The notes under the pieces were generated by a model. It made no database searches. It was not told where the DNA came from and saw only the letters and a list, made by a program, of their open reading frames with translations. Of a DNA stretch of 64,000 bases, positions 1 through 61,296 are shown in pieces. Source of the DNA: an uncultured Pelagibacteraceae bacterium (GTDB taxonomy: Bacteria > Pseudomonadota > Alphaproteobacteria > Pelagibacterales > AG-422-B15); assembly GCA_902590345.1 (NCBI GenBank), contig CACIWK010000001.1, positions 40,341 through 104,340 of the forward strand, in the 5' to 3' direction. Position numbers and translations under genes: made by a program. Positions within the stretch are counted from its first letter, which is position 1. Every line of letters starts with the position of its first letter.

Positions 1-1698
1 ATCTGGACTAAACTCAAAATCTAAATTTATACCTTCTCTTTTAATTGGATCAAGATTTGTATTTACAGATTGGTCGTATTGAATTTCATTTAAAGTATCA
101 ATGTCAAAATAATTTACATTTAAATTTGCGACTTCATTTGAGTAAATAACGCCTATCTCTATTCCATCTGACTCCTGATCTTTGAGCTCAAATGAACCAC
201 TTGTAGTCGCCAATATTCTTTCATCAATATTTGGAATTCTAAAGGATTCAGAATAATTGCCGTAAATTGAAAAGTTCTTATCTATTTTTTTCTCTACACC
301 AATGTTTAAAGCTTGATTTGTACTAGAGTTATCATACGTAGCGTGGTCAGTTGCATCCCAGGAATTAACAAAGCCTGATACTGTCCTGTCGATTTCGTCT
401 CGTGCACCGAATTGAGACTCTTCAGATCTAAATCCAAATGACAAGGAAGTATCTGTTTCATTAAAATATATCGTATTCTGAAAGTATACAGACTGAACTT
501 TAAGATCAGCATCATAATTTTGACCTACCTGTTCATCTTCTTTTCTATGTCGTTTTGAATCATAAAAACTATGCGTATGATCAAGGCCAATATTCAAAAT
601 ATTTGTAAACTTTTCATCTATATTCCTAACTTCGTATCTACCATTATAAATGTTCCCATCTATTGTAGTGTTCAAGTACCTATCGCCATCATTTGGAGTT
701 TCGTATGTATTTCCATTGGCAGCAAGAAAGGCTTTATCATTTTTTTTCTTATATCCTATATTCAGGAAGATTTTATTTAAGCTATCGATTTCGTGAACAA
801 TACCTAAATTTACTCTCTCATTTTCTAAGTTTGAATAATCATCTCTTTGTTCTGAATTGCATGAATCTCCATTTGCTGCAAATGAACCACCAATATGTTT
901 TGCAGTCTTACTATCCTCATAACGATTGCAAAAATGATAATTATACACGGCCCCTCCTTTTACTCGAGGACCTGGTAAATCTTGTTCTCTATACGAGGAA
1001 AAAAGGTCTAGATTAAATTTTGTTTGATCAATGGTATTTTTTATATTTAAAACAAAATTCTCGTCTGAATAATCCCCTGCGTCACGAAAGGTATCACTTG
1101 TGAAGCCTGTTCCTGATAAAGAAATAACTCCTTTTTCACCAAATGAATTACTTAAGGAAAAATCCGCACCTAATCTGCTATATGAACCAAAAGAGAGTTC
1201 ACCACGATTTTGTAAATTATCATTTTGAGTAACAATATTGACTGCACCTCCAATAACGCCAGAGCCGTATAATGTTCCTGCAGATCCACCTCTAATAATT
1301 TCAATCCTTTCAATTGAGTCAATTGGTATGTAGGATAAATTCACATTAGACATATCAATGTCATTTAAACGAATGCCATTAACTAGAATTAAAGAATTAG
1401 ATTTAGAGGCTTCACCAAATCCTCTAATGTCCAATGAAGAGTTGGTCCCACCAACGCCATCATAAAGACGACGCACATCAATTCCAGAATTTGTTTCTAA
1501 AATCTGAGGTAAATTTTTGCCATGCTGTGACGCTAAATCTTCCTTACTAATAATTGTTATGTTTGATCCAGATAAACCGGATGAAAGCCGAGTATATTCC
1601 TCATTTTTTGGGTTAATTAAAATTTCAGGAACATCAGCTGAGATTTTGAAAGAAAGTGTTAGTAAGAATGTTAAAATTAAAAATAATCTTTTAGTCAT
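1..1698 (-). CDS. TonB-dependent outer-membrane receptor, BtuB-like. N-terminal ~566 aa only; the C-terminus lies beyond the left edge.
   Basis: Absent from the ORF track because no stop lies in the window. I checked the reverse frame codon by codon and it is open from 1698 to base 1. ATG at 1698-1696 sits 6 nt after GGAGG (1709-1705). The translation starts MTKRLFLILTFLLTLSFKISA (signal peptide). Plug-domain motifs follow: DIRGFG, NSLILVNGIRLND, IERIEIIRGGSAGTLYGSGVIGGAVNIVT. A cobalamin riboswitch lies directly upstream. Confidence 0.85.
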   Translation of the reverse strand, partial: MTKRLFLILTFLLTLSFKISADVPEILINPKNEEYTRLSSGLSGSNITIISKEDLASQHGKNLPQILETNSGIDVRRLYDGVGGTNSSLDIRGFGEASKSNSLILVNGIRLNDIDMSNVNLSYIPIDSIERIEIIRGGSAGTLYGSGVIGGAVNIVTQNDNLQNRGELSFGSYSRLGADFSLSNSFGEKGVISLSGTGFTSDTFRDAGDYSDENFVLNIKNTIDQTKFNLDLFSSYREQDLPGPRVKGGAVYNYHFCNRYEDSKTAKHIGGSFAANGDSCNSEQRDDYSNLENERVNLGIVHEIDSLNKIFLNIGYKKKNDKAFLAANGNTYETPNDGDRYLNTTIDGNIYNGRYEVRNIDEKFTNILNIGLDHTHSFYDSKRHRKEDEQVGQNYDADLKVQSVYFQNTIYFNETDTSLSFGFRSEESQFGARDEIDRTVSGFVNSWDATDHATYDNSSTNQALNIGVEKKIDKNFSIYGNYSESFRIPNIDERILATTSGSFELKDQESDGIEIGVIYSNEVANLNVNYFDIDTLNEIQYDQSVNTNLDPIKREGINLDFEFSPD

Positions 1699-1775
1699 AA
1701 TTTGCCTCCAGTTTGAAGTCACCGCAAACAAATTGTCCAAATGATTATCCCGATCACCTGTGGATGACTATGTTT

Positions 1776-1926
1776 TGTTGGTAGGTCTCCTGACTTCTCC
1801 ATCACTACTTAAGCACACCTTCCCGATTGATCAGTGGTATCTGTACTTAAATTCCAGAGTTACAGTTGCGGGTACAGTTAAGGCCTTAAACCTTATTCCC
1901 TGTTATTCACTTTACGTGAACCAACA
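1776..1926 (-). promoter_or_regulatory. Cobalamin (B12) riboswitch aptamer in the 5' leader of the TonB-dependent receptor
   Basis: The reverse strand reads TGTTGGTTCACG..AACAGGGAATAAGG..CTGTACCCGCAACTGTAA..CCACTG..CGGGAAGG..GAAGTCAGGAGACCTACCAACA. This includes the conserved AGGGAA, CCCGCAACTGTAA and CCACTG/GGGAAGG blocks and the B12 box (AGTCAGGAGACCTACC). P1 closes as TGTTGGT/ACCAACA. About 75 nt of expression platform follow before the GGAGG-ATG. Confidence 0.85.
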
Positions 1927-1967
1927 TTAAAACTATTGTATATTCGAAATTACAAAGCAAGAAAAAA

Positions 1968-6754: not shown

Positions 6755-7411
6755 TTAATCTTTTGTATCGTTTTCTTCTTGAGCTACTGTCTCAGTTTCA
6801 GGAGCTATATCAATATTTTCTGAAACCTCTTCTGCCTCAATGCTGTTCACTTCAGTTTCGTCAAACTCAGATACATTCATGGATTCACTTGGTGATGTAG
6901 GCTCTTCTGTTGACTCTGAACCTTCTACATCATTCATCATATCAATTTCAGAATTTTCTTGTTCAATTTTTTCAAGTTCATCATCGCTTGGAACTATTTC
7001 ATCAGAGGATGGTTGTGGTTGAATAACTTCTTCAATTGGCTTTGCTCTAGACTCTACTCTTGGTGAACGAGCAGTAAATTTTCTTGTAGCCGATTTTTCC
7101 ATTTCTGACTTTGATAAACCACCTTGATACATTTGTCTGAAGGTATCATTATCAACTTCTTCTAGCTCTTCTTCTTCTTCATAATCAGGTATTTGTCTAA
7201 GCTTCGAAACAATACTTTCCTTTAACTCTTCAGCAGTTATTTTTGACTCTCCAATTTCTCGAAGGGCAATAACAGGTTTTTTATCATTTTCAGGATCAAC
7301 AGCTGGAGTAGCTCCTCTACCTAATTGTACAGCTCTTTCTTTAGCTAATATGACTAAATCGTATTGGTTATTCACCAACTTTATACAATCTTCAACAGTA
7401 ATTCGTGCCAT
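6755..7411 (-). CDS. rpoZ: DNA-directed RNA polymerase omega subunit with a long acidic C-terminal extension
   Basis: The N-terminus MARITVEDCIKLVNNQYDLVILAKERAVQLGRGA is the conserved omega core. The remaining ~130 aa are rich in Glu, Asp and Ser. Confidence 0.85.
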   Translation of the reverse strand: MARITVEDCIKLVNNQYDLVILAKERAVQLGRGATPAVDPENDKKPVIALREIGESKITAEELKESIVSKLRQIPDYEEEEELEEVDNDTFRQMYQGGLSKSEMEKSATRKFTARSPRVESRAKPIEEVIQPQPSSDEIVPSDDELEKIEQENSEIDMMNDVEGSESTEEPTSPSESMNVSEFDETEVNSIEAEEVSENIDIAPETETVAQEENDTKD

Positions 7412-29032: not shown

Positions 29033-30049
29033 ATAACCCTTTTGAATATCAACTGCATCTTGAGTAAAGGGGTCAACTTCTAATAATTGAGCAAGATAGA
29101 TAACCCTTAACATTTCTGTTCCAAAAAAATGGCCAATCTTACTCATATCTTTATCTTTAAAAATATGTTTATTAGTATTCTCATTTATCTTTGATAACGA
29201 TTTACTCATGGCATCAAGATGATTTGAAAGTGTGATATTAATCATATTCATTTTTGAGTATTCCATACCCATAATTTCAAAAAAAATATTTTTGGGTCCA
29301 TCCAGATATAATTGTAAGAGACTGTGCTGGTCTTTTGGCATTTCAGATACTACAGGTAAAACACCTTTGGCCTTTTTACCCAATGACTCCGCATATAATT
29401 GTTTTCGCCAATTACCAATTTCAATAAGTTCATCACCATAAATCAAATAGGCAAATATATTCTTTCCATTTTTTATTCTTTTAAAATCTTCCTCAGCCAT
29501 ATTCTTTATTTGGTCTTTATCTTCTAATGCTTTTCTTCCTCCATTTAAAAACTCAGTGCACAGATCTTTATTAAAGTAAAAACTGGGGATAAGGCTATTA
29601 TTACTAAAAATTGAAAATCTGCCTCCAATTTCGTTGCTTAGTTCAATAGTTTTTATTGATTTTTGTATAGACAAGTCTCTTAGTGGAGAAGACACATTTT
29701 CTGTAAAAGAATAGAAATTTTTTGAAAAATCAATATTTCCATCTAGTTTTTTGATCATATATTCAAATATGGTTAACGTTTCAGATGTTTGTCCTGATTT
29801 TGATACGAAAATGAAACCAGTCTTATCTAGTTGAGTATTTTCTAACAATTCATTAATCTTAACAGAATTTAAATGATCAACATATTGAACACGTTTTTCA
29901 TTTAAAAAATGATTAATTGCTTTTGATCCCTGAGAAGAGCCACCTATACCGACTACTAAAATTTTATTAAAGCTTTGTTCCAGTATCCCTAACGATTCGG
30001 AATATGAGTTTTCAAGCTTATCAAAATCAAGAAATGGATAATTCATCAT
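29024..30049 (-). CDS. pgi: Short, divergent glucose-6-phosphate isomerase family (SIS) protein
   Basis: 341 aa. PGI blocks GIGGSSQGSKA, SKSGQTSET, GGRFSIFS, WRKQLYAESLGK and DQHSLLQLYLDG. The C-terminal block reads DPFTQDAVDIQK. Confidence 0.65.
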   Translation of the reverse strand: MMNYPFLDFDKLENSYSESLGILEQSFNKILVVGIGGSSQGSKAINHFLNEKRVQYVDHLNSVKINELLENTQLDKTGFIFVSKSGQTSETLTIFEYMIKKLDGNIDFSKNFYSFTENVSSPLRDLSIQKSIKTIELSNEIGGRFSIFSNNSLIPSFYFNKDLCTEFLNGGRKALEDKDQIKNMAEEDFKRIKNGKNIFAYLIYGDELIEIGNWRKQLYAESLGKKAKGVLPVVSEMPKDQHSLLQLYLDGPKNIFFEIMGMEYSKMNMINITLSNHLDAMSKSLSKINENTNKHIFKDKDMSKIGHFFGTEMLRVIYLAQLLEVDPFTQDAVDIQKGYLN

Positions 30050-31044
30050 CGCACTTCCTGACCAGCTGTTACGGTTGCTTGATCTATTTGCCTTTCAAAC
30101 TCTCTCAATCTTTTATAAACACTTGCGAGTTCAATAATTGTTGGCCAGGCTTTGAGAAGATATTGCATTGACCCCTCAACTCTACCAAATGCCCTGATTA
30201 TTTGCTGCATTACACCAAGAGTAACTACCCCGGCAACAATTGCAGGGGCTAAAAATACATAAGCTGATAAAACATTTGCCTGTAAAAATGCAATACGACC
30301 AATATCAAAATATAGATATCTTATATAACTTAAAAAATGAATTTGCCTTACATCATCAAATAATTCCTCAAGGGTTTTTGGTCTTACTGTTTTATCATCT
30401 TCAGCAATTACTAACATTTTTCTGTATGCCGCTTCTTGTTTTTGTAAATCGTATTCAATACCAACAAGCCTTAAAATTAAACCAAGTCCAATTAAAAATA
30501 ATGTTCCTCCTATAGACCATAATAATGCACCAACGACTAGACCATACTCCCATTCACCAAAGAAAAATATTGGAATTCCAATACTCAAGCCAAACAGTAT
30601 TGGCATAAATTCTACCAGGATCATTAAAGCTTCAATCAAACTTGTACCAAGAGACTCCATGATTCTTGAAAACTTTATGGTATCCTCTTGAACTCTTTGT
30701 GACGCACCCTCAATCTTACGCGCCTTATCATAGACAGAGTGATACCACTCAACCATGGCAGTTCTCCATCTAAATAAAAAGTGATTAGTAAAATAACTTA
30801 CAAGGACAGCAACTGCTACATACATTCCTGCTAGTGTTATAAAGGATAATAAACTTGCCCAATACTCTTCAATTGTAATGGCGTTAGGAGCAGACAATGC
30901 TTCCTGTATCATGTCGTAAAACTCACCGAACCATTCATTAATTTTTACATCAATTTGAACCTGAACCCACAGAGATGATAAGATAATAGCTGAACCAATG
31001 TATGCCCATAAAAACCATTTTGGATCTCTAAAAAACTTAAACAT
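30046..31044 (-). CDS. SbmA/BacA-like inner-membrane transporter
   Basis: 332 aa. MFKFFRDPKWF and INEWFGEFYDMIQ align by eye with E. coli SbmA (MFKSFFPKP, VNAWYAPFYDLIQ). Confidence 0.65.
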   Translation of the reverse strand: MFKFFRDPKWFLWAYIGSAIILSSLWVQVQIDVKINEWFGEFYDMIQEALSAPNAITIEEYWASLLSFITLAGMYVAVAVLVSYFTNHFLFRWRTAMVEWYHSVYDKARKIEGASQRVQEDTIKFSRIMESLGTSLIEALMILVEFMPILFGLSIGIPIFFFGEWEYGLVVGALLWSIGGTLFLIGLGLILRLVGIEYDLQKQEAAYRKMLVIAEDDKTVRPKTLEELFDDVRQIHFLSYIRYLYFDIGRIAFLQANVLSAYVFLAPAIVAGVVTLGVMQQIIRAFGRVEGSMQYLLKAWPTIIELASVYKRLREFERQIDQATVTAGQEVR

Positions 31045-31055
31045 TTATAGAATAA

Positions 31056-31670
31056 TTAATTTGAATATGAATTAAGTAAGTCATCCACCCTGTTAAGAAG
31101 ATCATTCAGATCTTCGTTTTCATCAAAACTAGGAGCATCATCATACATTGTTTCATCAATTATTTCTGGTTTAAGCTGATCTTCTTCGGGAAGTGTTGTA
31201 ATTTCATCTGTGTTTGATATTCCTTCCAAAAACTCTTCCTCGCTCAAACCAATATTATCAGTTGTATCTAAAGTGCTATCGTCATCTGTTACAATGTCTA
31301 ATTCATTACTTTCAACAATTGAATCTTCAATTACCTCATCAAGAGGATCCTCAGTTAAAGTTGAATTATTTATATTTTGATCCTCGTTTCCAAAATTATT
31401 ATCAATAAATTCGTCTAACGATGATGTATCGGCATTACTAGGCACGCTGGTAGATGAGCTTTGTGTAATGATATCTTGAATATCTTCGGCTGACTCACCT
31501 GTAGGCGCGGCCTCCTCTACTTCCTCTTCACCAACAACTGGTGGGGTTAATTCAAAATCAGGGGGTATCTCTAGTGCTTTCTGCTTTAATGATGTGTAAT
31601 CTCTGACTGTATTGTTAGTACAAGCAGCAAAAATTAATAAAAAAAATATAATTAAATAGTTACGTATCAT
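31056..31670 (-). CDS. Lipoprotein (DUF3035-like) with a long acidic low-complexity tail
   Basis: I chose the start at MIRNYLIIFFLLIFAAC (lipobox FAAC). The motif EIPPDFELTPP follows, then ~150 aa rich in D, E, S, T and N. It lies immediately downstream of lspA and overlaps it slightly. Confidence 0.6.
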   Translation of the reverse strand: MIRNYLIIFFLLIFAACTNNTVRDYTSLKQKALEIPPDFELTPPVVGEEEVEEAAPTGESAEDIQDIITQSSSTSVPSNADTSSLDEFIDNNFGNEDQNINNSTLTEDPLDEVIEDSIVESNELDIVTDDDSTLDTTDNIGLSEEEFLEGISNTDEITTLPEEDQLKPEIIDETMYDDAPSFDENEDLNDLLNRVDDLLNSYSN

Positions 31671-32175
31671 TTTTAACGGTTTTATCATTTTCTTTTTTTG
31701 AGAACAACTCAAGTAAAATAATCAAAATACAGCCGAGCGTGATACTTATATCAGCTATATTGAATACATACCAATGATAATTGTTATAATGTAAATCTAT
31801 AAAGTCTAATACAGCAGAATATTGATATCTGTCGAGCAAGTTACCTAGCGCTCCTCCAATAATTAAACTAAATCCATAATAATAAATTTTTTTATTAATA
31901 CTTATTGCATAAAAAAATACTGCTATAGCAATTATCGCCATAACAAACATATAAATATAATTAACCATCGAAATTTCATTTTGTAATATCCCAAATGCAA
32001 AGCCCTTATTCCATATCAAATGAAAATTAAGATATTTATTTATTGATGTTAAATGTTGTGAACTTAGATTTGATACATCAATGTTATAAACATTGATTAC
32101 ATAAAACTTTGAGAGTTGATCGGCTGCAAAAATAACCAGTATTAAAAATATAAATCGTCCAATGGTTTGTATCAT
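31660..32175 (-). CDS. lspA: Lipoprotein signal peptidase (signal peptidase II)
   Basis: 171 aa, four TM segments. Motifs NKGFAFG and FNIADISI. Its start overlaps the ileS stop by 4 nt. Confidence 0.85.
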   Translation of the reverse strand: MIQTIGRFIFLILVIFAADQLSKFYVINVYNIDVSNLSSQHLTSINKYLNFHLIWNKGFAFGILQNEISMVNYIYMFVMAIIAIAVFFYAISINKKIYYYGFSLIIGGALGNLLDRYQYSAVLDFIDLHYNNYHWYVFNIADISITLGCILIILLELFSKKENDKTVKNDT

Positions 32176-43263: not shown

Positions 43264-44454
43264 ATGGAAAATGATAGCAAATTAACAGTCACGTATGCCG
43301 CCTTAGGTCACTTACTAATGCATATGTTTGCTGCATTCTATTTTGTTATAGTTCTAGCAATTGAAGACGACTGGAAGCTTAGCTACGATGAATTACTAAA
43401 TCTTTGGTTTTTAGGATCTTTACTTGTGGGTTTGGGAGCCCTTCCTGCTGGATGGATCAGTGACAGATGGAGTCGTTCTGGAATGATTGCAATTATGTTC
43501 ATTGGCTTGGGAATTAGTTCATTATTATGTGGCTTGAGCGGAAATAAAGTTTCTTTATTTATCAGTTTATCATTGCTTGGATTGTTTTGCGCTATCTATC
43601 ACCCCGCTGGAATTTCATGGGTTGTTAACACTTCAAAGGAAACTGGTAAAGCGCTTGGCTTTAATAATATTTTTGGGGGAGTAGGTATTGGATTAGGTGC
43701 CTTTTTTGCGGGTGTATTAATTGAACAATTTAATTGGCAAGCTGCCTTTATGCTACCCGGATTGATCTCATTAGTAGTTGGACTAAGTCTAACCTATCAT
43801 CTTAAATCAGGAAAAATATCATTAAAGAATATATCTTCAGAGCAGTTTAGAGATAATCCTGAAAAAAATCAGATGCTAAAAATTGCAATTATTATGCTGT
43901 TAAGTATTACAAGTTTGAGCTTTGTTTATCAAATTCTTCAGACAAGTCTTCCAAAGGCAATTGATATCAGACTTACTGATAGTCTTGATTTATCTACTTC
44001 AGATATCGGCTACATAGTTGCCGCGATATATATTGTAAGTGGTTTAATGAATTATGTTGGAGGTATTTTAACAGATAAATATTCTGAAAAGCTGATTTAT
44101 TCAATTGGAATAGTTGGCCAAGGACTCCTCTTACTCTTAATTGTTAGTCTTTCAAATTACTGGTTAATTGCAATAAGTCTTGCAATCGTTGCTTTTAATT
44201 CAAGTATACTGCCTGCAGAAAATTTATTACTTGCAAAATTTTCACCTGAAAAATATCAAAGCCTAGTCTACGGTATTAAATTTATTGTATCATTTACAGT
44301 TGGTCCTATTGCACTGATCATGATTTCGAGAAGCTATGATTTAACGGGTGAATTTGGTGTACTCTACTTAGCTTTTGGGTTTGTGATGATAATTATGTTT
44401 CTGATTGTATTAACTCTACCTGTAAAAAAAGTAATTACTGGTACAGCTGGGTAG
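43264..44454 (+). CDS. MFS transporter
   Basis: 396 aa, about 12 TM segments. MFS loop motif GWISDRWSRSG between TM2 and TM3. Confidence 0.8.
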   Translation: MENDSKLTVTYAALGHLLMHMFAAFYFVIVLAIEDDWKLSYDELLNLWFLGSLLVGLGALPAGWISDRWSRSGMIAIMFIGLGISSLLCGLSGNKVSLFISLSLLGLFCAIYHPAGISWVVNTSKETGKALGFNNIFGGVGIGLGAFFAGVLIEQFNWQAAFMLPGLISLVVGLSLTYHLKSGKISLKNISSEQFRDNPEKNQMLKIAIIMLLSITSLSFVYQILQTSLPKAIDIRLTDSLDLSTSDIGYIVAAIYIVSGLMNYVGGILTDKYSEKLIYSIGIVGQGLLLLLIVSLSNYWLIAISLAIVAFNSSILPAENLLLAKFSPEKYQSLVYGIKFIVSFTVGPIALIMISRSYDLTGEFGVLYLAFGFVMIIMFLIVLTLPVKKVITGTAG

Positions 44455-44515
44455 ATTCGAACTACCGACCTCCTGAACCACAACCAGGCGCTCTAACCAA
44501 CTGAGCTACAGCTGC
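44439..44515 (-). tRNA. tRNA-His (GTG) with encoded CCA and no G-1
   Basis: The reverse strand reads GCAGCTG TA GCTC AGTTGGTTA GAGC G CCTGG TTGTGGT TCAGG AGGTC GGTAG TTCGAAT CTACC CAGCTGT ACCA. The cloverleaf folds and the anticodon is GTG. The base 5' of G1 is T. The 3' end overlaps the MFS stop region by 16 nt on the opposite strand. Confidence 0.9.
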
Positions 44516-44520
44516 ATAAG

Positions 44521-44596
44521 TGGTGGCTCGAGGTGGAATTGAACCACCGACACAAGGATTTTCAGTCCTTTGCTCTACCAACTGAGCTATCGAGCC
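44521..44596 (-). tRNA. tRNA-Phe (GAA) with encoded CCA
   Basis: The reverse strand reads GGCTCGA TA GCTC AGTTGGTA GAGC A AAGGA CTGAAAA TCCTT GTGTC GGTGG TTCAATT CCACC TCGAGCC ACCA. Confidence 0.92.
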
Positions 44597-44665: not shown

Positions 44666-45022
44666 TTAATCCAGAAAAACCTTTAATCTACTGATTAATT
44701 GGTCAACATTATCAAATGAATTCATCTCATGGGAATTAATTATTAATTTAAATTCATCCTTCTCATTAATAAAAACACATGGTAGCTCTGTTTTCTCATC
44801 AACAAAATCAAGTTCTTTTAGATGATCAATATAGTAAAATCGGCTATGTGCATTTATATTATTAAGAAATTCTTTCCACTTTATTTCTTTACCTAAATTA
44901 TTGTATGTAATTGAGCATAAGTTGCAGTCATAAGTTTTTGGCGATATTATTTTATGCGCCCAATCTATAAAGGTATTTCCGATGCCACTTTTTGCATTAT
45001 AAATAAAAATTAATTCAGTCAT
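44666..45022 (-). CDS. Hypothetical 118-aa protein with a CxxC motif (possibly thioredoxin-like fold)
   Basis: A beta-alpha start (LIFIYNAKSG) precedes YDCNLCSITY. Its start overlaps the maf stop by 4 nt, placing it in the infA-maf operon. I recognise no family. Confidence 0.4.
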   Translation of the reverse strand: MTELIFIYNAKSGIGNTFIDWAHKIISPKTYDCNLCSITYNNLGKEIKWKEFLNNINAHSRFYYIDHLKELDFVDEKTELPCVFINEKDEFKLIINSHEMNSFDNVDQLISRLKVFLD

Positions 45023-53939: not shown

Positions 53940-54587
53940 CTAATTTAATTTAAGAACTTCTGAAGAATATACAGAATTTAAATACTCTGGATGATCAAGT
54001 TTCATTAATATTGAAGGACCATTTAGAGCAGAATCAGGTGTGCGATGAAGTATACCATTGCTACCACCGGTAAATATTGCAATGTTCCATTTATCAATGA
54101 AATGTAATTTACTTTTATCTCTAACGATCTTTTCATTTGGTTCACCTGCCTCATAGGCTAGACGGTCAGCATCCTGATTTTGTATCCATTCTGTACCTTG
54201 TCCAGCATAAGTGACCAAAAGACGTCTTGGTACGTTATCAACATGATAACGTCTACACTCTCGTTTTGTCCCAAGCCAAAAGCAAAGTGTATCAGTTTTT
54301 TCAATCAGTAAGAATGTTCTGCAAACGGTTTCCATATCTGCAAGCCAATAATTATAAAACTCAGTTGAACTTAACTGGTTAGGAATTATTTCCTGGACCA
54401 AATTTTTTAAATCTTCTTTCAAATTAATTGAACTAAGAGTGCCCTCAACTCCAAAGTCATTTTTCATTAATTTTTGAAAGAAAGAACCTGCACCCTCAGG
54501 TTGTTCACGCTCCAATATACCTAATTTATAGTCAGTATCCTTGAATTCTTTTAAAGATTCTAGATTGTCAGCTTTAAATAAGCTCAT
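53940..54587 (-). CDS. DUF1826-like protein, co-oriented downstream of znuA
   Basis: 215 aa. It starts 18 nt after the znuA stop. C-terminal motif GILHRTP. The family assignment is from memory of DUF1826 neighbours of zinc and COG0523 genes and is not verified. Confidence 0.45.
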   Translation of the reverse strand: MSLFKADNLESLKEFKDTDYKLGILEREQPEGAGSFFQKLMKNDFGVEGTLSSINLKEDLKNLVQEIIPNQLSSTEFYNYWLADMETVCRTFLLIEKTDTLCFWLGTKRECRRYHVDNVPRRLLVTYAGQGTEWIQNQDADRLAYEAGEPNEKIVRDKSKLHFIDKWNIAIFTGGSNGILHRTPDSALNGPSILMKLDHPEYLNSVYSSEVLKLN

Positions 54588-54605
54588 GAAAAATATTTTG
54601 TAGAG

Positions 54606-55715
54606 TTAGCAATTTTCAAATGAAGATGCCATGTCACCTATTAGATCAAAATAAAGATCTTTTCCTGGCTCCAATTCAGCTCCTAATGGATCTAAAACGG
54701 CAGACTTTATACCAGTATCACTTGCAATTGTTTCTGCAATACTTGGGTTAAATTGAGGCTCTGAAAATAAACAATTAACACTCTCATGCTCAATTACTTC
54801 TCTTATTTCTGCAAGTTGCTTCGCACCAGGCAACACCTCAGGATTTACAGTAAGAGCACCAATTACTTCAATACCAAATCTCTGCTCAAAATATTGATAG
54901 GCATCATGAAACACAATGTATGTTGCATCACTATTTATTTTTGATCTTGTATTGTCTATTAACTGGTCAAGGTCATTAATAGCATTCGCAGCATTGGATG
55001 AATAAATTGATTTATTGGCAGGATCAATTTCAGATAATTCTTCAGAAGCAATACTTACAATTGTTTTTGCTATTTCTGGATCTAGCCAAAAATGTATATC
55101 GTGCTCACCGTGATGGTGACCGTGATCATCATGTCCTTCGTGTTCATCATGATCGTCATGTCCGTCAGCGTGTTCTTCATGATCGTCGTGACCCTCGTGT
55201 TCGTCATGTTCATCATGTTCGTCGTGTTCGTCGTGTTCGTCGTGTTCGTCATGTTCATCGTGTTCGTCATGTTCGTCGTGTTCGTCGTGTTCGTCGTGTC
55301 CATCAGCATGATCTTCGTGTTCATCATGATCATCGTGGTGATCTTCAAATACGTTTTTTTCTCTAAATTTTAGTAAATCTATCTGATCTGACTCCATTAA
55401 GGTTACTTTTCTGGCATCATTAGCAATTGAGTCTAGAGGGTCTTCTAGAAAAGACTCTAAATCTTCCCCAATCCAAAAAACTACATCAGCTTCTTGTAAC
55501 ATAGTTGCATGAGAAGGCTTTAATTGGAATGTGTGAGGTGAGGCACTACCATCGACTAATAAACTAGGCTTGCCCACTCCGTCCATCACATAGCTAACTA
55601 ACGAATGAACTGGTTTGATTGAAACAACAACTTTTGTTTCTGCATTAGCAAAAGATGAATATGACAGAATTGAAATAATTGATAATAAAAGTCCAAATTT
55701 GAGTTGTAATTTCAT
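54606..55715 (-). CDS. znuA: Zinc ABC transporter periplasmic binding protein with a very long His/Asp/Glu loop
   Basis: I chose the start at MKLQLKFGLLLSIISILSYSSFANA (signal peptide). VVVSIKPVHSLV, SPHTFQLKPS and HFWLDP are cluster A-I SBP motifs. The central loop is about 80 aa of H/D/E including (DEH)x11. Confidence 0.88.
   Translation of the reverse strand: MKLQLKFGLLLSIISILSYSSFANAETKVVVSIKPVHSLVSYVMDGVGKPSLLVDGSASPHTFQLKPSHATMLQEADVVFWIGEDLESFLEDPLDSIANDARKVTLMESDQIDLLKFREKNVFEDHHDDHDEHEDHADGHDEHDEHDEHDEHDEHDEHDEHDEHDEHDEHDEHEGHDDHEEHADGHDDHDEHEGHDDHGHHHGEHDIHFWLDPEIAKTIVSIASEELSEIDPANKSIYSSNAANAINDLDQLIDNTRSKINSDATYIVFHDAYQYFEQRFGIEVIGALTVNPEVLPGAKQLAEIREVIEHESVNCLFSEPQFNPSIAETIASDTGIKSAVLDPLGAELEPGKDLYFDLIGDMASSFENC
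55197..55295 (-). repeat. 11 tandem copies of a 9-bp unit (GAYGAACAY on the coding strand) encoding (Asp-Glu-His)11 inside znuA
   Basis: Top-strand units are RTGTTCRTC, counted one by one from 55197 to 55295. A 12th, degenerate unit follows. Confidence 0.9.
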
Positions 55716-55748
55716 AGATTTATTGCTTTCATGGTTAAATAAATATAG

Positions 55749-55763
55749 TGTTATAATATAACA
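55749..55763. promoter_or_regulatory. Zur-box-like palindrome 1, in the 71-nt znuA / znuC divergent spacer
   Basis: TGTTATAATATAACA is a perfect 15-bp palindrome (TGTTAT-N3-ATAACA). It contains a TATAAT hexamer and matches the core of the published proteobacterial Zur consensus (..ATGTTATAnTATAACAT..). Confidence 0.8.
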
Positions 55764-55786
55764 AAAAAATTTATCAAGCATTATTT

Positions 55787-56536
55787 ATGAACGATAGTGA
55801 AACTCTAATTAGATTGACTAATGCAGGAATTTTTAAAAATAAAAAATGGCTTGTTCGAAATGTTGATTTAGAAATAAAACGAGGGCAAATTGTAACGTTA
55901 ATTGGTCCCAATGGTTCTGGTAAAACGACAACCGCTAAAATAGCTCTAGGTTTATATAAGACTATTAGTGGAAGAGTTGAGAGAAATACAACAAAAATAT
56001 CCTATGTACCCCAAAAAGTGTCGATTGATTGGACATTGCCTTTAAGGGTTGCTGACTTCATGGTTTTAACTCAAAACTTAAAAGTAGATGATATTGATAG
56101 TGCTCTCAATTTAACTGGTGTGCAGCATTTAAAAGATAGCAATCTTAGAGATTTGTCTGGAGGTGAGTTTCAAAGAGTTTTGTTAGCGCGCGCAATAGCA
56201 AAAAAACCTGAGCTCTTAGTTCTTGATGAGCCAGTACAGGGTGTAGATTTTACTGGAGAAGTTGCCTTGTACTCCCTAATAAAAACTATCTCTGAAAATC
56301 TAAACTGTGGGATACTCCTTATCTCTCATGATTTGCATGTGGTAATGTCTGCAACTGACTACGTTGTTTGTTTGAATGGTCATGTATGTTGCTGTGGAAC
56401 GCCAAGAGACGTTGCAGAAAGTAATCCTTATAAACAATTATTTGGAGAGAAATCTGCAAAACTGTTATCGATATATGAACACAACCATGATCATATTCAT
56501 TCATCAGATGGTAATATCATTAAGGAAGTTGAGTAG
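55787..56536 (+). CDS. znuC: Zinc ABC transporter ATP-binding protein
   Basis: 249 aa. GPNGSGKTT, LSGGEFQR, LVLDEP. Confidence 0.88.
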   Translation: MNDSETLIRLTNAGIFKNKKWLVRNVDLEIKRGQIVTLIGPNGSGKTTTAKIALGLYKTISGRVERNTTKISYVPQKVSIDWTLPLRVADFMVLTQNLKVDDIDSALNLTGVQHLKDSNLRDLSGGEFQRVLLARAIAKKPELLVLDEPVQGVDFTGEVALYSLIKTISENLNCGILLISHDLHVVMSATDYVVCLNGHVCCCGTPRDVAESNPYKQLFGEKSAKLLSIYEHNHDHIHSSDGNIIKEVE

Positions 56537-56538
56537 TT

Positions 56539-57336
56539 ATGTTGGATGATTTTATCGTAAGAGCTATAATAGCAGGTATTGGGATTGCCCTTGTTACTGG
56601 ACCGTTAGGTTGTTTTGTGGTTTGGAGGAGATTATCTTTTTTTGGTGACACGTTAGCTCATTCAGCATTACTAGGTGTTTTAATTTCAATAACATTAGAT
56701 ATAAATGTTTCCTTAACTATCTTTGTTGTTGCATCTCTGGTTGCAATACTTTTATTAAGGCTTGAAAGAACAACCAATCTAGCAGGGGACTCACTCCTAG
56801 GCCTGATATCACACTCATCACTAGCGATTGGGTTGGTAATACTTGGTTTTTTATCCTTTATAAGATTTGATGTTATGGGTGTTTTGTTTGGAGATATTCT
56901 CTCAGTTAATTCGAATGACTTGCTAGTAATATGGATTGGAGGGGCTTTGATACTTGTTGTTTTAAGCTATATTTGGAAACCTCTTTTTGCATCAACAGTA
57001 AATTATGAGTTAGCTGAAGCTGAAGGTATGAAGCCAGAAAGAGTAAATGCCATATTCACAATTTTACTTGCAGCCCTGATTGCGATATCTATTAAGATGA
57101 TCGGCGTACTTCTTATAACTGGTTTACTAATTATACCAACTGCAATGGCTCGTAATCTATCTGATAATCCAAGACAAATGGTAATACTATCTATTATTGG
57201 CGGTTTATTATCGGTTTTGATCGGACTGTATGCTTCTTTTGAAATAAACACTTCATCAGGACCATCAATTGTTGTAGTTGCTTTAATTTTATTTATCCTA
57301 TCATTAATGAGAATCAGAAAAAAAAATTATGAATAA
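56539..57336 (+). CDS. znuB: Zinc ABC transporter permease
   Basis: 265 aa. It has 8-9 TM segments and the GCFVVWRRLSFFGDTLAHSAL motif typical of ZnuB and MntB-type permeases. Confidence 0.88.
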   Translation: MLDDFIVRAIIAGIGIALVTGPLGCFVVWRRLSFFGDTLAHSALLGVLISITLDINVSLTIFVVASLVAILLLRLERTTNLAGDSLLGLISHSSLAIGLVILGFLSFIRFDVMGVLFGDILSVNSNDLLVIWIGGALILVVLSYIWKPLFASTVNYELAEAEGMKPERVNAIFTILLAALIAISIKMIGVLLITGLLIIPTAMARNLSDNPRQMVILSIIGGLLSVLIGLYASFEINTSSGPSIVVVALILFILSLMRIRKKNYE

Positions 57337-57748
57337 AAATAGTAAAAAGTTAACAAAAAACCAAAGAATTGTACTCGAGTTCGTACAAAAATCTAACAGA
57401 CCCGTTAAAGCTTACTCTATTCTAAACAATGTCAATAAACGAGGAATCAAAGCCCCACCTCAAGTCTATAGAGCCCTAGAAAAGTTAATAAAAATTGGGG
57501 AAATACATAAAATTGAAAGTCAAAATGCATTTGTTGCTTGCAATTCAAAATGTGTGGAACCGCACGGAACAATTTTTTCAATTTGTAAAAGCTGTGATCA
57601 AATAGATGAGATAAGTGATAAAAAACTTTATAAATATTTGTCTGAAGTAAGAGATATGAATGGTCTTAAATTAAGTGGATATAATTTAGAGTTATTCGGT
57701 ACTTGTAAGACATGTGATCAAAAACATCTTCAAAATACGAATCAATAG
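57329..57748 (+). CDS. zur: Fur-family zinc uptake regulator
   Basis: 139 aa. Winged helix (VYRALEKLIKIGEIHK) and two CxxC pairs (CKSC, CKTC). It overlaps znuB by 8 nt, giving the znuCB-zur arrangement. Confidence 0.8.
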   Translation: MNKNSKKLTKNQRIVLEFVQKSNRPVKAYSILNNVNKRGIKAPPQVYRALEKLIKIGEIHKIESQNAFVACNSKCVEPHGTIFSICKSCDQIDEISDKKLYKYLSEVRDMNGLKLSGYNLELFGTCKTCDQKHLQNTNQ

Positions 57749-57755
57749 ATTATAC

Positions 57756-57774
57756 AATGTTATAAAATAACATT
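57756..57774. promoter_or_regulatory. Zur-box-like palindrome 2, upstream of the DUF2796 gene
   Basis: AATGTTAT-aaa-ATAACATT has 8-bp perfect arms. It lies 8 nt after the zur stop and 59 nt before the next ATG. Confidence 0.78.
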
Positions 57775-57832
57775 TTTCTAGACACACAAAATTTTTTTCA
57801 ATAAAATTTTTTAAATTAAAAAGGGAGCATGG

Positions 57833-58471
57833 ATGAAAAAAAATATTTACTATTCGCTACTAATATCTGCAATGGTATCAGTTTCGGCGGCTGAAGAAAC
57901 AAGACAAGTTGATAAACATGAGCATGGTGTTGGTGAATTAAATATTGCTATTGAAGGAAATGCCATAGATTTTGAATTTTTTATTCCTGGAGCTGATATT
58001 GTAGGTTTTGAATATGAAGCTAAAACTGAGTCTGATATTGCTCTTGTAAATGCAGCTTTAGAAAAATTTGAAAATTTTGATAATATTTTTAGTCTTTCCG
58101 AGTCCTCAAATTGTAATTTAGTAAATTCTGAAATTGGAATCAATCAAGACGATGACCATGATGATCACGATGACCATGATGAGCATGATGAGCACGATGA
58201 CCATGATAATCACGATGACCATGATGAGCACGATGACCATGATGAGCATGATGACCATGATGAGCATGATGAAGAAGCTCATAACGAGTTTGTTGCACAC
58301 TACTCATTTAATTGCGGAAATATAAAAGAAATTGACAGAATTAGCTTTCCATATTTTACTACTTTTCCAAACTCTGGAGAACTTGAGGTACAATTCGTAT
58401 CAGAGATTGGTTCGACAAGTTTTGAAGTGGAGGGAGATGAGCCTTTCATAGACTTAAAAGGAAAAATCTAA
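57833..58471 (+). CDS. DUF2796 / ZrgA-like secreted His-rich metal-binding protein
   Basis: 212 aa. Signal peptide, HEHGVGELNIAIEGNAIDFEFFIPGADIVGFEYE (DUF2796 pattern), and a central run of ~45 aa of D, H and E. Confidence 0.75.
   Translation: MKKNIYYSLLISAMVSVSAAEETRQVDKHEHGVGELNIAIEGNAIDFEFFIPGADIVGFEYEAKTESDIALVNAALEKFENFDNIFSLSESSNCNLVNSEIGINQDDDHDDHDDHDEHDEHDDHDNHDDHDEHDDHDEHDDHDEHDEEAHNEFVAHYSFNCGNIKEIDRISFPYFTTFPNSGELEVQFVSEIGSTSFEVEGDEPFIDLKGKI
58151..58267 (+). repeat. 13 tandem 9-bp units (GAT-GAN-CAY) encoding (Asp-Asp/Glu-His)13
   Basis: Units counted from gatgaccat at 58151 to gatgagcat ending at 58267. Confidence 0.9.
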
Positions 58472-59170
58472 TTGGATGAAAGTATAATTAAAATTGATTC
58501 AGTAAGATTTTATTGGTCAAAAAAAAGTAATTTCAAGATATTTGTTCCAAACCTAGAAATTAAAAAAGGTGAAAAAGTTCTCTTATTGGGAGAAAGCGGC
58601 TCAGGCAAAACCACACTCCTTTCCCTAATGTGTGGTTTTCTTAATCCATTATCTGGAAATATAAGTATTAACGGTAACACTATTAACCAACTTTCATCTA
58701 AAACTAGGGATGAGTATCGTGCTGATAATATAGGAATTATTTTCCAACAATTTAACTTGCTGCCTTATGCGAATGTTGTTGATAATGTTTTACTACCTTT
58801 ATATTTTTCAAAAGTAAGATCAAACAACGTTTCCAACAAAAAAGAAAAGGTAATTGAACTTTTTAAACAATTGAGATTACCAGATGATATTGCACAATTT
58901 AGGGCAAGTAGTTTAAGTATGGGTCAGCAACAAAGAGTGGCAGTGGCTCGGGCACTAATTGGGAACCCATCGCTGATCATTGCTGACGAACCAACTTCCT
59001 CACTTGATGCAGATGCGCAAAAGATTTTTTTAAATTTGATGTTTGAACAAATTTCAGAGAATAACTCTACGTTATTGATGGTTTCACATGATAAATCGCT
59101 CTCTAATCAATTTGATCGATTAATTGACATAAACGAAATACTCATAAGGGAAGATAAGTCATGTTATTAA
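58472..59170 (+). CDS. ABC transporter ATP-binding protein (MacB/LolD-type), ZrgB-like
   Basis: 232 aa, TTG start directly after the preceding stop. GESGSGKTT, LSMGQQQR, IIADEPTS. Confidence 0.8.
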   Translation: MDESIIKIDSVRFYWSKKSNFKIFVPNLEIKKGEKVLLLGESGSGKTTLLSLMCGFLNPLSGNISINGNTINQLSSKTRDEYRADNIGIIFQQFNLLPYANVVDNVLLPLYFSKVRSNNVSNKKEKVIELFKQLRLPDDIAQFRASSLSMGQQQRVAVARALIGNPSLIIADEPTSSLDADAQKIFLNLMFEQISENNSTLLMVSHDKSLSNQFDRLIDINEILIREDKSCY

Positions 59171-60411: not shown

Positions 60412-60872
60412 TTAAAAAATTAAAAATCTTATTAATTATTTTTATTTTTATTCCGCTTTCTGCTTACTCAGCGCCAAAAGAAATAGACTGGGATGACCTA
60501 ATACCATGGACATCTGTTTTTAGCCCCGGCGAGGTAAAGTTTAATAAAAATCTCGAAGATAAGGAAGTTAAGATCCCTGGATATGTTTTGCCATTGGATA
60601 TGTACGGCCGAGGTATTAACACCTTTTTGTTAGTTCCATACATTGGAGCATGCATTCATGTCCCTCCACCAGCGCCTAATCAAATCGTTTATGTAGAAGC
60701 GGAGAATCCTTGGGAAGGTCTAGCCTGGTGGGAACCTGTTTACGTAACTGGAAAAATTAAAATTGAAAATCAAAATATTGAAGACCTTGCAATCGTAGGC
60801 TATGAATTAGCTGCAAACAATATCGAATATTATCGTGGTGAAACAGGGGTTCACGGATTCTTTGATTGGTAG
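60408..60872 (+). CDS. DUF3299 protein, ZrgD-like
   Basis: 154 aa. Signal peptide and the hallmark LLVPYIGACIHVPPPAPNQIVYV. It overlaps the permease gene by 4 nt. Confidence 0.7.
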   Translation: MIKKLKILLIIFIFIPLSAYSAPKEIDWDDLIPWTSVFSPGEVKFNKNLEDKEVKIPGYVLPLDMYGRGINTFLLVPYIGACIHVPPPAPNQIVYVEAENPWEGLAWWEPVYVTGKIKIENQNIEDLAIVGYELAANNIEYYRGETGVHGFFDW

Positions 60873-60888
60873 GATTTTACGAGTCTAT

Positions 60889-61296
60889 TTACTTATCCTT
60901 AAAGTACTCAATTATATCTGATTTATAATCAAGAGGTGGGAACCTTCCAATAATATTTGATTGATAGTTCCTTGGCCTATATCTTCTTCTGAGAAACCCA
61001 TCTTTAGCTTTTGTATACGATGATACTAAATTTTTTAGAGATGAAATATATAATGGTTTTTTTGGGTCTATATCTCCAAAAACGTAAGTAAAACGCTTAT
61101 CGGCAGACAGAGAGATTGCACAAGACCGCTTGCAGCAACTCATACAATTTACACCTCTGATGATAACGTCATCTTGTCTTTTGAAACTGTTCACAATTTT
61201 TTTTGCAAAGCGCTCGCCTCCTCGAGAATTATATTTTTCTTCTCGTCCATCTCGACAAGTTAAACAGATCGATAAAACAGGTTTAGTGTTGCTCAT
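60889..61296 (-). CDS. DUF1636-like Cys-rich putative metal-binding protein
   Basis: 135 aa. Cys pattern CLTC..(36 aa)..CMSCCKRSC. It is divergent from the COG0523 gene, with a Zur-box-like site between them. Confidence 0.55.
   Translation of the reverse strand: MSNTKPVLSICLTCRDGREEKYNSRGGERFAKKIVNSFKRQDDVIIRGVNCMSCCKRSCAISLSADKRFTYVFGDIDPKKPLYISSLKNLVSSYTKAKDGFLRRRYRPRNYQSNIIGRFPPLDYKSDIIEYFKDK

Follow-up and report, generated by a model that had tools for sequence, protein, structure and literature searches.

SAR11 bacteria are the most abundant heterotrophs of the ocean, where vitamin B12 is a scarce and traded micronutrient. How a streamlined SAR11 genome might acquire B12, and how it might control the uptake, is the question raised by one end of the 64-kb stretch of DNA analysed here (the window), in which a putative B12-sensing leader precedes a receptor gene that runs past the edge. 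The cultured SAR11 type strains are without a TonB-dependent transporter (PMC3400609), and a B12-addition study stated that the regulation of SAR11 btuB by B12 is unknown (PMC9296465). The riboswitch-receptor mechanism itself is already known in kind, and the literature searches yielded no account of such a cobalamin-controlled cassette in SAR11. In our reading, the window very probably contains the 5' end of a two-gene, riboswitch-gated corrinoid-uptake operon of the Pelagibacteraceae (SAR11). Since a B12-sensing switch precedes the gene of a TonB-dependent receptor, uptake of B12-type cofactors appears to follow demand in at least this lineage. The assignment to SAR11, a guess in the initial annotation, agrees with the closest homologues and the syntenic contigs, which are Pelagibacteraceae single-cell genomes.

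A cobalamin aptamer preceding the gene of a TonB-dependent receptor

The leader was analysed with cmscan at the Rfam gathering thresholds, and the sole match reported there was to the cobalamin riboswitch RF00174 (107.1 bits, E 7.6e-26; gathering threshold 31.5 bits), aligned without truncation over model positions 1-189 of 189. The initial annotation had proposed a cobalamin riboswitch here and had placed its aptamer at 1926-1776; the core was located correctly, while the full match is slightly wider (Table 1). The B12 box AGUCAGGAGACCUACC and the closing P1 helix that it had described were both recovered, the P1 strands GUUGGU and ACCAAC being paired in the RF00174 model alignment. Homologous aptamers in 20 Pelagibacterales loci scored 98-123 bits in the Rfam scan, and in a motif search 43 locus records of Pelagibacterales had CAGGAGACCT[AG]CC upstream of the receptor. 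The L5 loop CCCG is invariant (52/52 sequences compared). The predicted ligand of this riboswitch is a cobalamin, most likely adenosylcobalamin in view of the class-I architecture.

The Shine-Dalgarno sequence GGAGG, the spacer of six bases and the ATG read as first described, and the frame that follows comprises 566 codons with zero stops. Its signal peptide and plug were borne out by translation and Pfam, which also matched the barrel. The gene is absent from the ORF track, which omits ORFs running off the source, and the ORFs listed at 306-1744 are shadows of it, as had been proposed, because none of them shares the receptor's frame. The window's own 3' end of the gene lies beyond the edge, and the full receptor length of about 748 aa was taken from 98% identical relatives. 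Of the flanking proteins, which might have led to this end of the contig, PGM has no record, and ACAD led only to a sister single-cell genome (L089) and a contig of 2.5 kb. An in-frame stop or a frameshift had been considered a possible objection to the gene; none occurs in the 566 codons, and in the 98% identical relative P0001 the ORF of 748 aa is intact. The C-terminus of full-length relatives reads Y746-x-F748, with both residues invariant. Compared with same-type relatives that have diverged enough for a measurement, the receptor has a dN/dS of 0.10-0.12, which indicates purifying selection.

At its N-terminus the receptor has MTKRLFLILTFLLTLSFKISA/DVPEILINP, which looks like a Sec signal peptide with a TonB-box-like PEILI after it. 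Among 16 homologues, I26 and I28 never vary and P30 hardly does, and we take VPEILINP to resemble the BtuB motif DTLVVTA. The plug (80.5 bits, cut-off 23.9) is the best-conserved stretch of the receptor and the barrel (70.9 bits, cut-off 27) is variable.

Table 1. Features of the riboswitch leader and the receptor gene, in window coordinates
Feature	Position	Strand	Basis
Cobalamin riboswitch aptamer (RF00174, class-I architecture, full model)	1763..1940	-	cmscan
L5 loop CCCG, predicted kissing-loop partner of L13	1869..1872	-	Rfam consensus structure
B12 box	1780..1795 (approx.)	-	sequence reading and RF00174 alignment
GUCAUC(C) box, conserved, directly 3' of P1	1763..1768	-	leader comparison
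P13 hairpin GUGAU-CGGGAUA-AUCAU	1741..1757	-	leader comparison
L13 loop CGGG, complementary to L5	1752-1749	-	leader comparison
GGUGAC, 3' strand of the helix enclosing P13	1718..1723	-	covariation
Shine-Dalgarno GGAGG, 6-nt spacer, ATG	1696..1709 (GGAGG 1709-1705; ATG 1698-1696)	-	
TonB-dependent receptor gene, 5' 566 codons, runs past window edge	1..1698	-	translation, Pfam
Signal peptide, residues 1-21, cleavage after ISA	1636..1698	-	inferred, read from translation
TonB-box-like motif VPEILINP, residues 23-30	1609..1632	-	translation and homologue alignment
Plug domain PF07715, residues 45-152	1243..1566	-	Pfam, E 1.5e-22
Beta-barrel PF00593 (TonB_dep_Rec_b-barrel), in-window part, residues 258-560	19..927	-	Pfam, E 2.5e-19

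The leader and its predicted mode of control

The start codon lies about 65 nt past P1, and no intrinsic-terminator-like site was found between 1500 and 2200. The loops L5 (CCCG) and L13 (CGGG) are complementary and both conserved. A G-C pair of the P13 stem is replaced by A-U in 6 of 27 distinct sequences, with 93% of cells paired, and the GUCAUC/GGUGAC helix is paired in 97.9% of cells, with G-C to A-U changes in 4 sequences. Over the 27 distinct leaders, P13 and its enclosing helix together are 95% paired and show double-sided changes in 3 pairs; when the partners were slid as a control, only 27-54% were paired. Control by the riboswitch is therefore most likely translational, as suggested by the absence of a terminator together with a conserved, covarying P13 whose loop is complementary to L5.

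The GUCAUC(C) box can pair either with GGUGAC or, alternatively, with the Shine-Dalgarno/AUG region, and GUCAUCC is complementary to the Shine-Dalgarno sequence or to the AUG region (AUGAC) in every leader type. In the window leader, the Shine-Dalgarno sequence and the AUG lie within 10-25 nt of the conserved platform helices, and both take part in base pairs in the RNAalifold consensus computed from 23 distinct leaders as well as in the minimum free energy (MFE) fold of the platform (-23.8 kcal/mol). In the same consensus the pairs that sequester the Shine-Dalgarno sequence are without compensatory changes, and the second codon varies. This fold and the covarying GUCAUC/GGUGAC helix compete.

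In the proposed mechanism, the class-I riboswitch in the mRNA leader would sense intracellular cobalamin. With ligand bound, L5 would kiss L13 in the P13 hairpin that immediately follows the aptamer. This contact would lock the platform in a fold that sequesters both the Shine-Dalgarno sequence and the AUG: AUGAC would pair with the conserved GUCAU box, and GGCAAAUU with AAUUUGU. The receptor would then not be translated, and the ribosome-binding site would be free when B12 is scarce. We infer both this OFF logic and the exact alternative pairings. A local GUCAUC/GGUGAU hairpin, seen in the MFE fold of the full leader, was dropped as a model of the ligand-free state because it is not conserved where the 5' strand of P13 is GUAAU or UUGAU.

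The arrangement resembles the btuB leader of Escherichia coli and Salmonella, where the gene of a TonB-dependent receptor likewise follows a cobalamin aptamer of class I that contains a B12 box. The two also share the L5-L13 complementarity and the lack of a terminator, which points to control at the ribosome-binding site. In E. coli, translational repression of btuB is followed by effects at the transcript level, a precedent for the idea that the SAR11 riboswitch acts mainly on transcription, by Rho-dependent or other premature termination or by mRNA decay, and not on ribosome binding. The structure of the expression platform is resolved in part, the covarying GUCAUC/GGUGAC helix does not itself include the Shine-Dalgarno sequence, and leaders of the long type carry extra strong hairpins (a 10-bp stem in locus L089, an 8-bp stem in L042), all of which would suit such a mode. 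However, we consider it improbable, given the terminator-free interval, the proximity of the Shine-Dalgarno sequence and AUG to the platform helices, their pairing in both the consensus and the MFE fold, and the complementarity of the GUCAUCC box to one or the other in all leader types.

Substrate of the receptor and the DUF6580 gene downstream

Like BtuB, the SAR11 receptor has a signal peptide, a TonB box, a plug and a barrel. Unlike BtuB, which has 614 aa, it is about 748 aa long, and its plug alone can be aligned (residues 47-197, E ~1e-14), with 83-86 bits for TIGR01779. The receptor scores far below the NCBIfam equivalog cut-offs for BtuB (TIGR01779, 83.1 bits against a cut-off of 599.7; NF007926, 78.6 against 836), these models aligning with residues 45-201 only; full-length P0001 reached 85.9 and 79.2 bits, respectively. 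Fold matching would not decide the substrate, because TonB-dependent barrels resemble one another too closely.

In an Rfam scan of 28 receptor-homologue loci outside the window, the receptor is immediately preceded by a cobalamin-class riboswitch in 27, and in the 28th (L074) such a riboswitch precedes a DUF6580-receptor pair. The distant homologues sampled, which are 24-29% identical and come from other Proteobacteria and one Bacteroidota metagenome-assembled genome, all have such a riboswitch (15/15), directly 5' of the receptor in 14, with L074 as the exception. Neighbours at the non-SAR11 loci include genes for TonB, a BtuF-like protein (Peripla_BP_2) and a PduO-type adenosyltransferase (Cob_adeno_trans). 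Moreover, a sister single-cell genome (L089) with the same riboswitch and locus encodes a 590-aa receptor that aligns end-to-end with the BtuB models (TIGR01779 positions 17-609 of 614, 220 bits, below the cut-off). A corrinoid substrate is thus well supported, since distant homologues follow cobalamin riboswitches beside TonB, BtuF-like and PduO-type genes. Taken in a functional sense, by its clade-wide cobalamin-riboswitch control and its B12 neighbourhood, the receptor may be called a BtuB, which would bring corrinoid through the outer membrane into the periplasm.

It is highly improbable that the receptor imports a non-corrinoid such as an iron-siderophore, haem or another nutrient, with the riboswitch merely coupling that uptake to B12 status. 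NCBIfam models for haem and transferrin receptors reach scores similar to those of the BtuB models while covering more of the protein, and homologues are labelled 'iron complex outermembrane receptor protein' at JGI. Yet all those scores are far under their cut-offs, and no Fur box or iron gene was found adjacent. The clade is tied, down to 24% identity, to cobalamin riboswitches, adenosyltransferase, BtuF-like protein and TonB, and the BtuB-like receptor of L089 substitutes at the same locus. The kinship with siderophore or haem receptors that the initial annotation had named as a counter-argument gained no support from these loci, and its proposal of regulated corrinoid scavenging is supported by the riboswitch, the frame, the domains, the association with B12 genes across the clade and the L089 receptor.

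In a further difference from the E. coli and Salmonella system, no btuF, btuC or btuD gene was found with the SAR11 receptor, either in the 64-kb window or within flanks of up to 10 kb around six SAR11 loci; instead a DUF6580 gene follows, in a streamlined genome. The tonB-exbBD genes and B12-dependent enzymes whose search had been recommended were likewise absent from the window, as was an adenosyltransferase (Pfam scans of 60 ORFs and a TonB HMM), and none of this gene set was found in the flanks of up to 10 kb around the SAR11 loci. A CobW-like GTPase at 61390-62364 was rejected as a sign of B12 metabolism because it is part of a zinc-uptake cluster.

The DUF6580 gene lies just past the window edge; it is present after the receptor in all relatives and encodes a 172-aa membrane protein. 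Precomputed Pfam matches to PF20221 were present downstream of the receptor in L001, L002, L081, L082, L084 and L089, and an HMM built from A2 found DUF6580 as the very next gene in 44 locus records of Pelagibacterales. Four DUF6580 genes were also sampled without reference to the receptor, and three of them lie in clusters of a TonB-dependent receptor, DUF6580, in some cases a BtuF-like protein, and adenosyltransferase; RF00174 was present in two of the three and metH nearby in two, while the B12-type cluster L088 gave no Rfam match. The DUF6580 gene of L086 is in an unrelated context. The family comprises about 5,000 clusters (50% identity) across bacteria, and no papers on it were found.

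The AlphaFold model of DUF6580 (pLDDT 93.4) reached a TM-score above 0.5 in a Foldseek search of the PDB only with the ECF S-components FolT (4z7f_D, probability 0.99, TM 0.55/0.57) and PanT (TM 0.54). These S-component matches have probabilities of 0.80-0.99, yet their E-values of 0.24-0.38 are not significant, and BtuM was outside the top 50. DUF6580 resembles FolT (4Z7F) and PanT (4RFS, 6ZG3) in size and in its roughly six transmembrane helices, but is only 11-14% identical to them, and EcfT/EcfA genes were not seen in the loci examined. Because of its predicted ECF-S-component-like fold and its recurrence in B12 operons, DUF6580 is probably the inner-membrane step of corrinoid uptake; it would carry the corrinoid across the inner membrane and replace BtuFCD.

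BtuM of Thiobacillus denitrificans is a solitary ECF-type S-component that pairs with BtuB in Gram-negatives. The SAR11 cassette shares with the BtuB-BtuM pair the riboswitch, the receptor and one small, multi-helix membrane protein, in SAR11 of a predicted S-component-like fold, with no ECF module alongside. Membership of DUF6580 in the BtuM family was rejected, and the likeness is one of function only: all PDB sequences were searched with phmmer and with a profile (hmmsearch), allowing E-values up to 10, and none matched, BtuM (6FFV) included. DUF6580 would be a family separate from BtuM, as it lacks sequence similarity to BtuM and has FolT and PanT as its best structural matches.

Receptor diversity at a single locus

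In about 45 species representatives of the Pelagibacterales, the riboswitch-receptor-DUF6580 cassette is found at one and the same junction, between the PGM and ACAD genes. Carriers include the single-cell genomes AG-894-I07 (GCA_902519835.1) and AG-911-E02 (GCA_902578305.1) and a Pelagibacterales metagenome-assembled contig of 1.41 Mb, some of whose proteins are identical to those of the window (GIR05006.1). The initial annotation had considered a TonB-dependent receptor notable for SAR11; this view has to be moderated, for the type strains have no such transporter but uncultured Pelagibacterales frequently carry the cassette. The receptor gene forms a sharply bounded hypervariable spot between near-identical flanks. 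This one locus hosts at least five receptor classes, with 26-64% identity between classes, and four of these are common to two SAR11 lineages that are 69-92% identical in their flanking proteins. Across the classes the aptamer is nearly identical, and nucleotide identity is high up to P13. DUF6580 is not always swapped with the receptor, the L022 type having 94% identity in DUF6580 and 52% in the receptor.

These patterns may reflect ancient allele classes held in a long-lived balanced polymorphism, and recombination may exchange the alleles over precisely the interval that separates the riboswitch from the downstream flank. Our joint proposal, of a minimal two-gene cassette, DUF6580 proteins as solitary S-component-like transporters, and a balanced receptor polymorphism driven by phages or bacteriocins, is a tentative one, somewhat less likely than not. 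Within it, the most likely cause of the diversity is that an exposed protein, possibly the only TonB-dependent receptor of the cell, is a target for phages and bacteriocins. It is also conceivable, if rather unlikely, that the classes admit different corrinoids (cobalamin, pseudocobalamin, cobinamide or other cobamides) and that the variability reflects ligand niche instead of predation. At least five such divergent classes at one locus in near-identical backgrounds, with a conserved plug and a variable barrel, would fit this explanation. Bacteroides thetaiotaomicron likewise has multiple riboswitch-controlled BtuB paralogues that differ in corrinoid preference. The SAR11 receptors resemble these in being several, deeply divergent and each behind a cobalamin riboswitch, but they are alternative alleles of one syntenic locus in different cells of closely related lineages and not paralogues that share a genome. 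Against ligand niche stand the near-identity of the aptamer across classes, which suggests one intracellular signal, and the L022 type, in which DUF6580 was not replaced along with the receptor.

The cleanly bounded, single-gene hypervariable locus offers a model for receptor diversification in a streamlined genome. The conserved riboswitch and receptor at a fixed site in so many species representatives answer the question of SAR11 regulation at the sequence level, and the cassette marks the Pelagibacterales lineages that carry it as regulated B12 consumers. It also provides precise read-mapping targets for metatranscriptomes of B12 amendments and a candidate function for DUF6580. If the proposal is true, B12 uptake in SAR11 would depend on a minimal, riboswitch-gated two-gene cassette, and the DUF6580 proteins would form a family of solitary corrinoid transporters that had not been characterised before.

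A cobalamin riboswitch and receptor gene in a SAR11-type host

An Rfam scan of the entire 64 kb at gathering thresholds returned three matches, one cobalamin riboswitch and two tRNAs. The riboswitch match spans model positions 1–189 of 189 and is not truncated, and the aptamer is closed by the P1 strands GUUGGU and ACCAAC. The full model thereby recovered the aptamer with B12 box and P1 helix described in the initial annotation; its location was right, while the true match is slightly wider than the proposed 1926–1776. Translation from position 1698 to base 1 gave 566 codons with zero stops, and Pfam detected a plug domain and a TonB-dependent barrel, bearing out the predicted GGAGG-N6-ATG and open frame with signal peptide and plug. 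At the N-terminus, MTKRLFLILTFLLTLSFKISA/DVPEILINP has the look of a Sec signal peptide, after which comes a TonB-box-like motif conserved across 16 homologues. Since the ORF lister skips ORFs running off the source, it displays just short ORFs at 306–1744; these are out of frame and, as suggested, shadows of the receptor gene. The initial finding is real, correctly interpreted and correct in every particular.

Features of the receptor locus, other window genes and related loci
Feature	Record	Position	Strand	Remarks
Cobalamin riboswitch (RF00174)	window	1763-1940	minus	107.1 bits (threshold 31.5), E 7.6e-26
B12 box AGUCAGGAGACCUACC	window	~1795-1780	minus	
P13 hairpin GUGAU-CGGGAUA-AUCAU	window	1757-1741	minus	within post-P1 block
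Shine-Dalgarno (SD) GGAGG	window	1709-1705	minus	followed by 6 bases
Start ATG	window	1698-1696	minus	
Plug domain	receptor	residues 45-152		Pfam, E 1.5e-22
TonB-dependent barrel	receptor	residues 258-560		Pfam, E 2.5e-19
ORF, 218 aa	window	6755-7411	minus	sole Pfam match RNA polymerase omega (Rpb6), residues 8-59
SbmA/BacA-like membrane protein	window	30046-31044	minus	332 aa, PF05992, E 6.5e-140
ORF, 218 aa	window	31056-31712	minus	no Pfam family at thresholds used
tRNA-His(GTG) + tRNA-Phe(GAA), tandem	window	44439-44596	minus	near hisG, HisZ-like paralogue, hisS, hisD
ORF, 118 aa	window	44666-45022	minus	no Pfam family at thresholds used
Zinc-homeostasis cluster	window	53940-63395		Pfam content
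Hypervariable segment	L001	10001-12790		equivalent of window 1-1698 and beyond left edge; vs L002, L005, L022, L043, L089, others
DUF6580 (PF20221)	L001	12272-12790		just past window's left edge
AdoCbl-II riboswitch (RF01689)	L074	3146-3238		before related receptor + DUF6580
AdoCbl-II riboswitch (RF01689)	L076	1942-2031		before related receptor + DUF6580
SAH riboswitch (RF01057)	L066	1364-1443		~2 kb upstream of B12 uptake operon
SAH riboswitch (RF01057)	L069	1326-1403		~2 kb upstream of B12 uptake operon

The closest protein (P0001, 748 aa, 98% identity) comes from SAG AG-894-I07, labelled uncultured Pelagibacteraceae bacterium, whose contig is collinear with the window across the 12 genes nearest the receptor. 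In a search taking one genome per GTDB species, the receptor was present in 45 loci of genomes labelled Pelagibacteraceae/Pelagibacterales at 35–100% identity, and several window proteins are identical to Pelagibacterales MAG proteins. Because these relatives and identical proteins belong to such genomes, the host is SAR11-type, as had been guessed. Given that the relatives carry full ORFs of 740–748 aa and that dN/dS is 0.10–0.12 between the window and same-type relatives with divergence large enough to measure, we infer that the receptor gene of the window is intact.

In five locus records (L001, L002, L081, L082, and L084) the order is a divergent PGM/PMM gene, riboswitch, receptor, DUF6580 (170–176 aa), and two acyl-CoA dehydrogenases, and gene order around the receptor is unchanged even at 35% receptor identity. 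By HMM, DUF6580 is the next gene after the receptor in each of the 44 Pelagibacterales records that reach far enough; Rfam confirmed RF00174 in 20 of these loci (98–123 bits), and the B12-box motif is present in 43. Many SAR11 lineages have therefore kept the cassette, an old feature, by vertical descent at one constant chromosomal position; it was not recently acquired. TonB-dependent transporters are entirely absent from the published type strains HTCC1062 and HTCC1002 (PMC3400609).

Predicted mode of action of the riboswitch

The start codon lies ~65 nt after P1, and the block following P1, GUCAUCC(A/U)CA..GU(G/A)AUCGGGAUAAU(C/U)AUUUGGAC, varies little or not at all among all the Pelagibacterales leaders. 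The loop of its P13 hairpin contains CGGG, the exact complement of the invariant CCCG of aptamer loop L5 (1872–1869), matching the L5–L13 kissing loop that other cobalamin riboswitches form. Among 27 distinct leaders, P13 and its enclosing helix GUCAUC/GGUGAC were 95% paired, compared with 27–54% when the partners were slid, and six sequences have G-C replaced by A-U in P13, while four have this change in the enclosing helix.

The consensus that RNAalifold gives for 23 distinct short-type leaders contains a three-way junction, as does the MFE structure of the window platform (–23.8 kcal/mol); this junction pairs GUCAU with AUGAC (start codon) and AAUUUGUUU with AGGCAAAUU (SD and spacer), leaving SD and AUG almost fully paired. 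The GUCAUCC box of longer leader types instead complements the SD found there (AAAGGAUGAC in L042 and L043, GAGGA in L029 and L031, GGAGG in L089). A translational OFF switch is favoured because no terminator-like structure was found between aptamer and receptor gene, the P13/L5 complementarity is conserved, and SD and AUG are paired in the predicted folds. The SD pairings displayed no compensatory changes. Since the covarying GUCAUC/GGUGAC helix and the SD-sequestering fold are mutually exclusive, any assignment of helices to the bound and free states is tentative.

Substrate of the receptor and the partner gene DUF6580

BtuB equivalog models are among the best matches of the window's receptor, limited to the plug, with scores of 83 and 79 bits where the cut-offs are 599.7 and 836, and PDB BtuB chains align at residues 47–197 only; from sequence alone the protein cannot be called BtuB. 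We sampled 15 loci of distant homologues (24–29% identity), one in a Bacteroidota MAG and the others in Gamma- and Alphaproteobacteria. Every one carries a cobalamin-class riboswitch (13 RF00174, two AdoCbl-II, RF01689), which in 14 loci stands immediately before the receptor, on its 5' side, and in the remaining one (L074) 5' of a DUF6580-receptor pair; their downstream genes encode TonB, PduO-type cobalamin adenosyltransferase, BtuF-like periplasmic binding proteins, or DUF6580 and then adenosyltransferase. The SAG contig L089, whose flanks share 94% nucleotide identity with the window, encodes behind the same riboswitch a 590-aa receptor in place of the 748-aa type, which aligns end to end with BtuB models (TIGR01779 positions 17–609 of 614, 220 bits). 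Regulation and gene neighbourhood both point to a corrinoid substrate, and the earlier reading as a corrinoid receptor stands: no clustering with siderophore or haem receptors was observed, the context being cobalamin riboswitches and B12 genes. Two marine alphaproteobacterial SAGs (L074 and L076) have the short AdoCbl-II riboswitch, not RF00174, L074 in the order riboswitch, DUF6580, receptor; SAH riboswitches occur in two gammaproteobacterial MAGs (L066 and L069).

Every SAR11 locus has DUF6580 next after the receptor, and the gene reappears in B12 salvage operons elsewhere in the Proteobacteria; it is also present in L066, L069, L071, L074, L085, L087, and L088. We found no literature on this large family (5,240 clusters at 50% identity, E up to 1e-3) and no sequence relatives in the PDB. 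An AlphaFold model built with 61 diverse sequences was confident (pLDDT 93.4, pTM 0.88), and its only PDB matches with TM >0.5 were ECF-transporter S-components, with E-values that are not significant (FolT 4z7f_D, probability 0.99, TM 0.55/0.57; PanT 4rfs_S, TM 0.54). Of four DUF6580 genes picked solely for the length of their contigs, three lie in receptor-DUF6580-(BtuF-like)-adenosyltransferase clusters, two of them with RF00174 and two with metH close by. On the most economical reading, DUF6580 is predicted to carry the corrinoid across the inner membrane, a role analogous to that of BtuM, a solitary S-component to which it is not homologous. The fourth gene (L086 6001–6522) sits in an unrelated cluster without riboswitch, together with 4HFCP_synth, DUF447, and DUF6513; since this cluster resembles one for a cofactor of the methanofuran or methanopterin type, the family may extend beyond corrinoids.

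Pfam scans of the receptor fragment and 60 further window ORFs revealed no cobamide-dependent enzyme, adenosyltransferase, BtuFCD, or ExbBD, and the TonB profile had no match in the window or the SAR11 loci. A mycobacterial member of the SbmA/BacA family is reported to be a B12 importer; the SbmA/BacA-like protein of the window lacks an ATPase domain and has no riboswitch nearby. In its zinc-homeostasis context, a 'CobW' match (61390–62364) is no sign of B12 synthesis: the cluster encodes DUF1826, ZnuA, ZnuC, ZnuB, a Fur-family (Zur-like) regulator, ZrgA, and a MacB-like ABC pair, and further DUF3299, DUF1636, this CobW/COG0523 GTPase, and a WD40 protein. The omega-like ORF has a long C-terminal extension whose length is conserved in L001, L002, and L082.

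Receptor hypervariability and its significance

L001 was compared with SAGs whose flanking proteins are 97–100% identical to its own. Receptor identity to L001 in these SAGs was 97, 92, 89, ∼61, ∼52, 37, and 29%, the last over one third of the length. Sliding nucleotide identity was 90–100% in the flanks and fell to 26–76% exactly over the receptor; the low-identity segment mostly takes in DUF6580, and identity is back to 92–99% within ∼500 bp after it. Against L089, homology breaks off within the expression platform, immediately 3' of P13. A second genomic background, with flanking proteins 69–92% identical to those of L001, carries the same receptor classes, with cross-background identities of 84, 76, 86, and 68–69% within class against 26–64% between classes. 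At least five allele classes exist, four of them common to two SAR11 backgrounds, so that the receptor tree conflicts with the flanks; several old allele classes are maintained side by side in related lineages.

Within a class the receptor is under purifying selection, and mean pairwise identity is 0.63 in the plug versus 0.44 in the barrel. Phages or bacteriocins may exert frequency-dependent selection on the exposed receptor, TonB-dependent receptors having been named as adsorption sites in the speculation of one pelagiphage paper (PMC10504331), or the classes may differ in corrinoid preference. No description of this polymorphism was found in the literature searched.

The literature is divided: SAR11 is called a B12 auxotroph, B12 regulation of its btuB has been stated as unknown (PMC9296465), and a btuB riboswitch in SAR11 goes unmentioned. 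Mechanistically, the locus adds one more case of the classical arrangement of a cobalamin riboswitch before a TonB-dependent B12 receptor. What goes beyond routine annotation is the host lineage, the minimal two-gene cassette with its uncharacterised S-component-like partner, and the sharply bounded hypervariability of the receptor.
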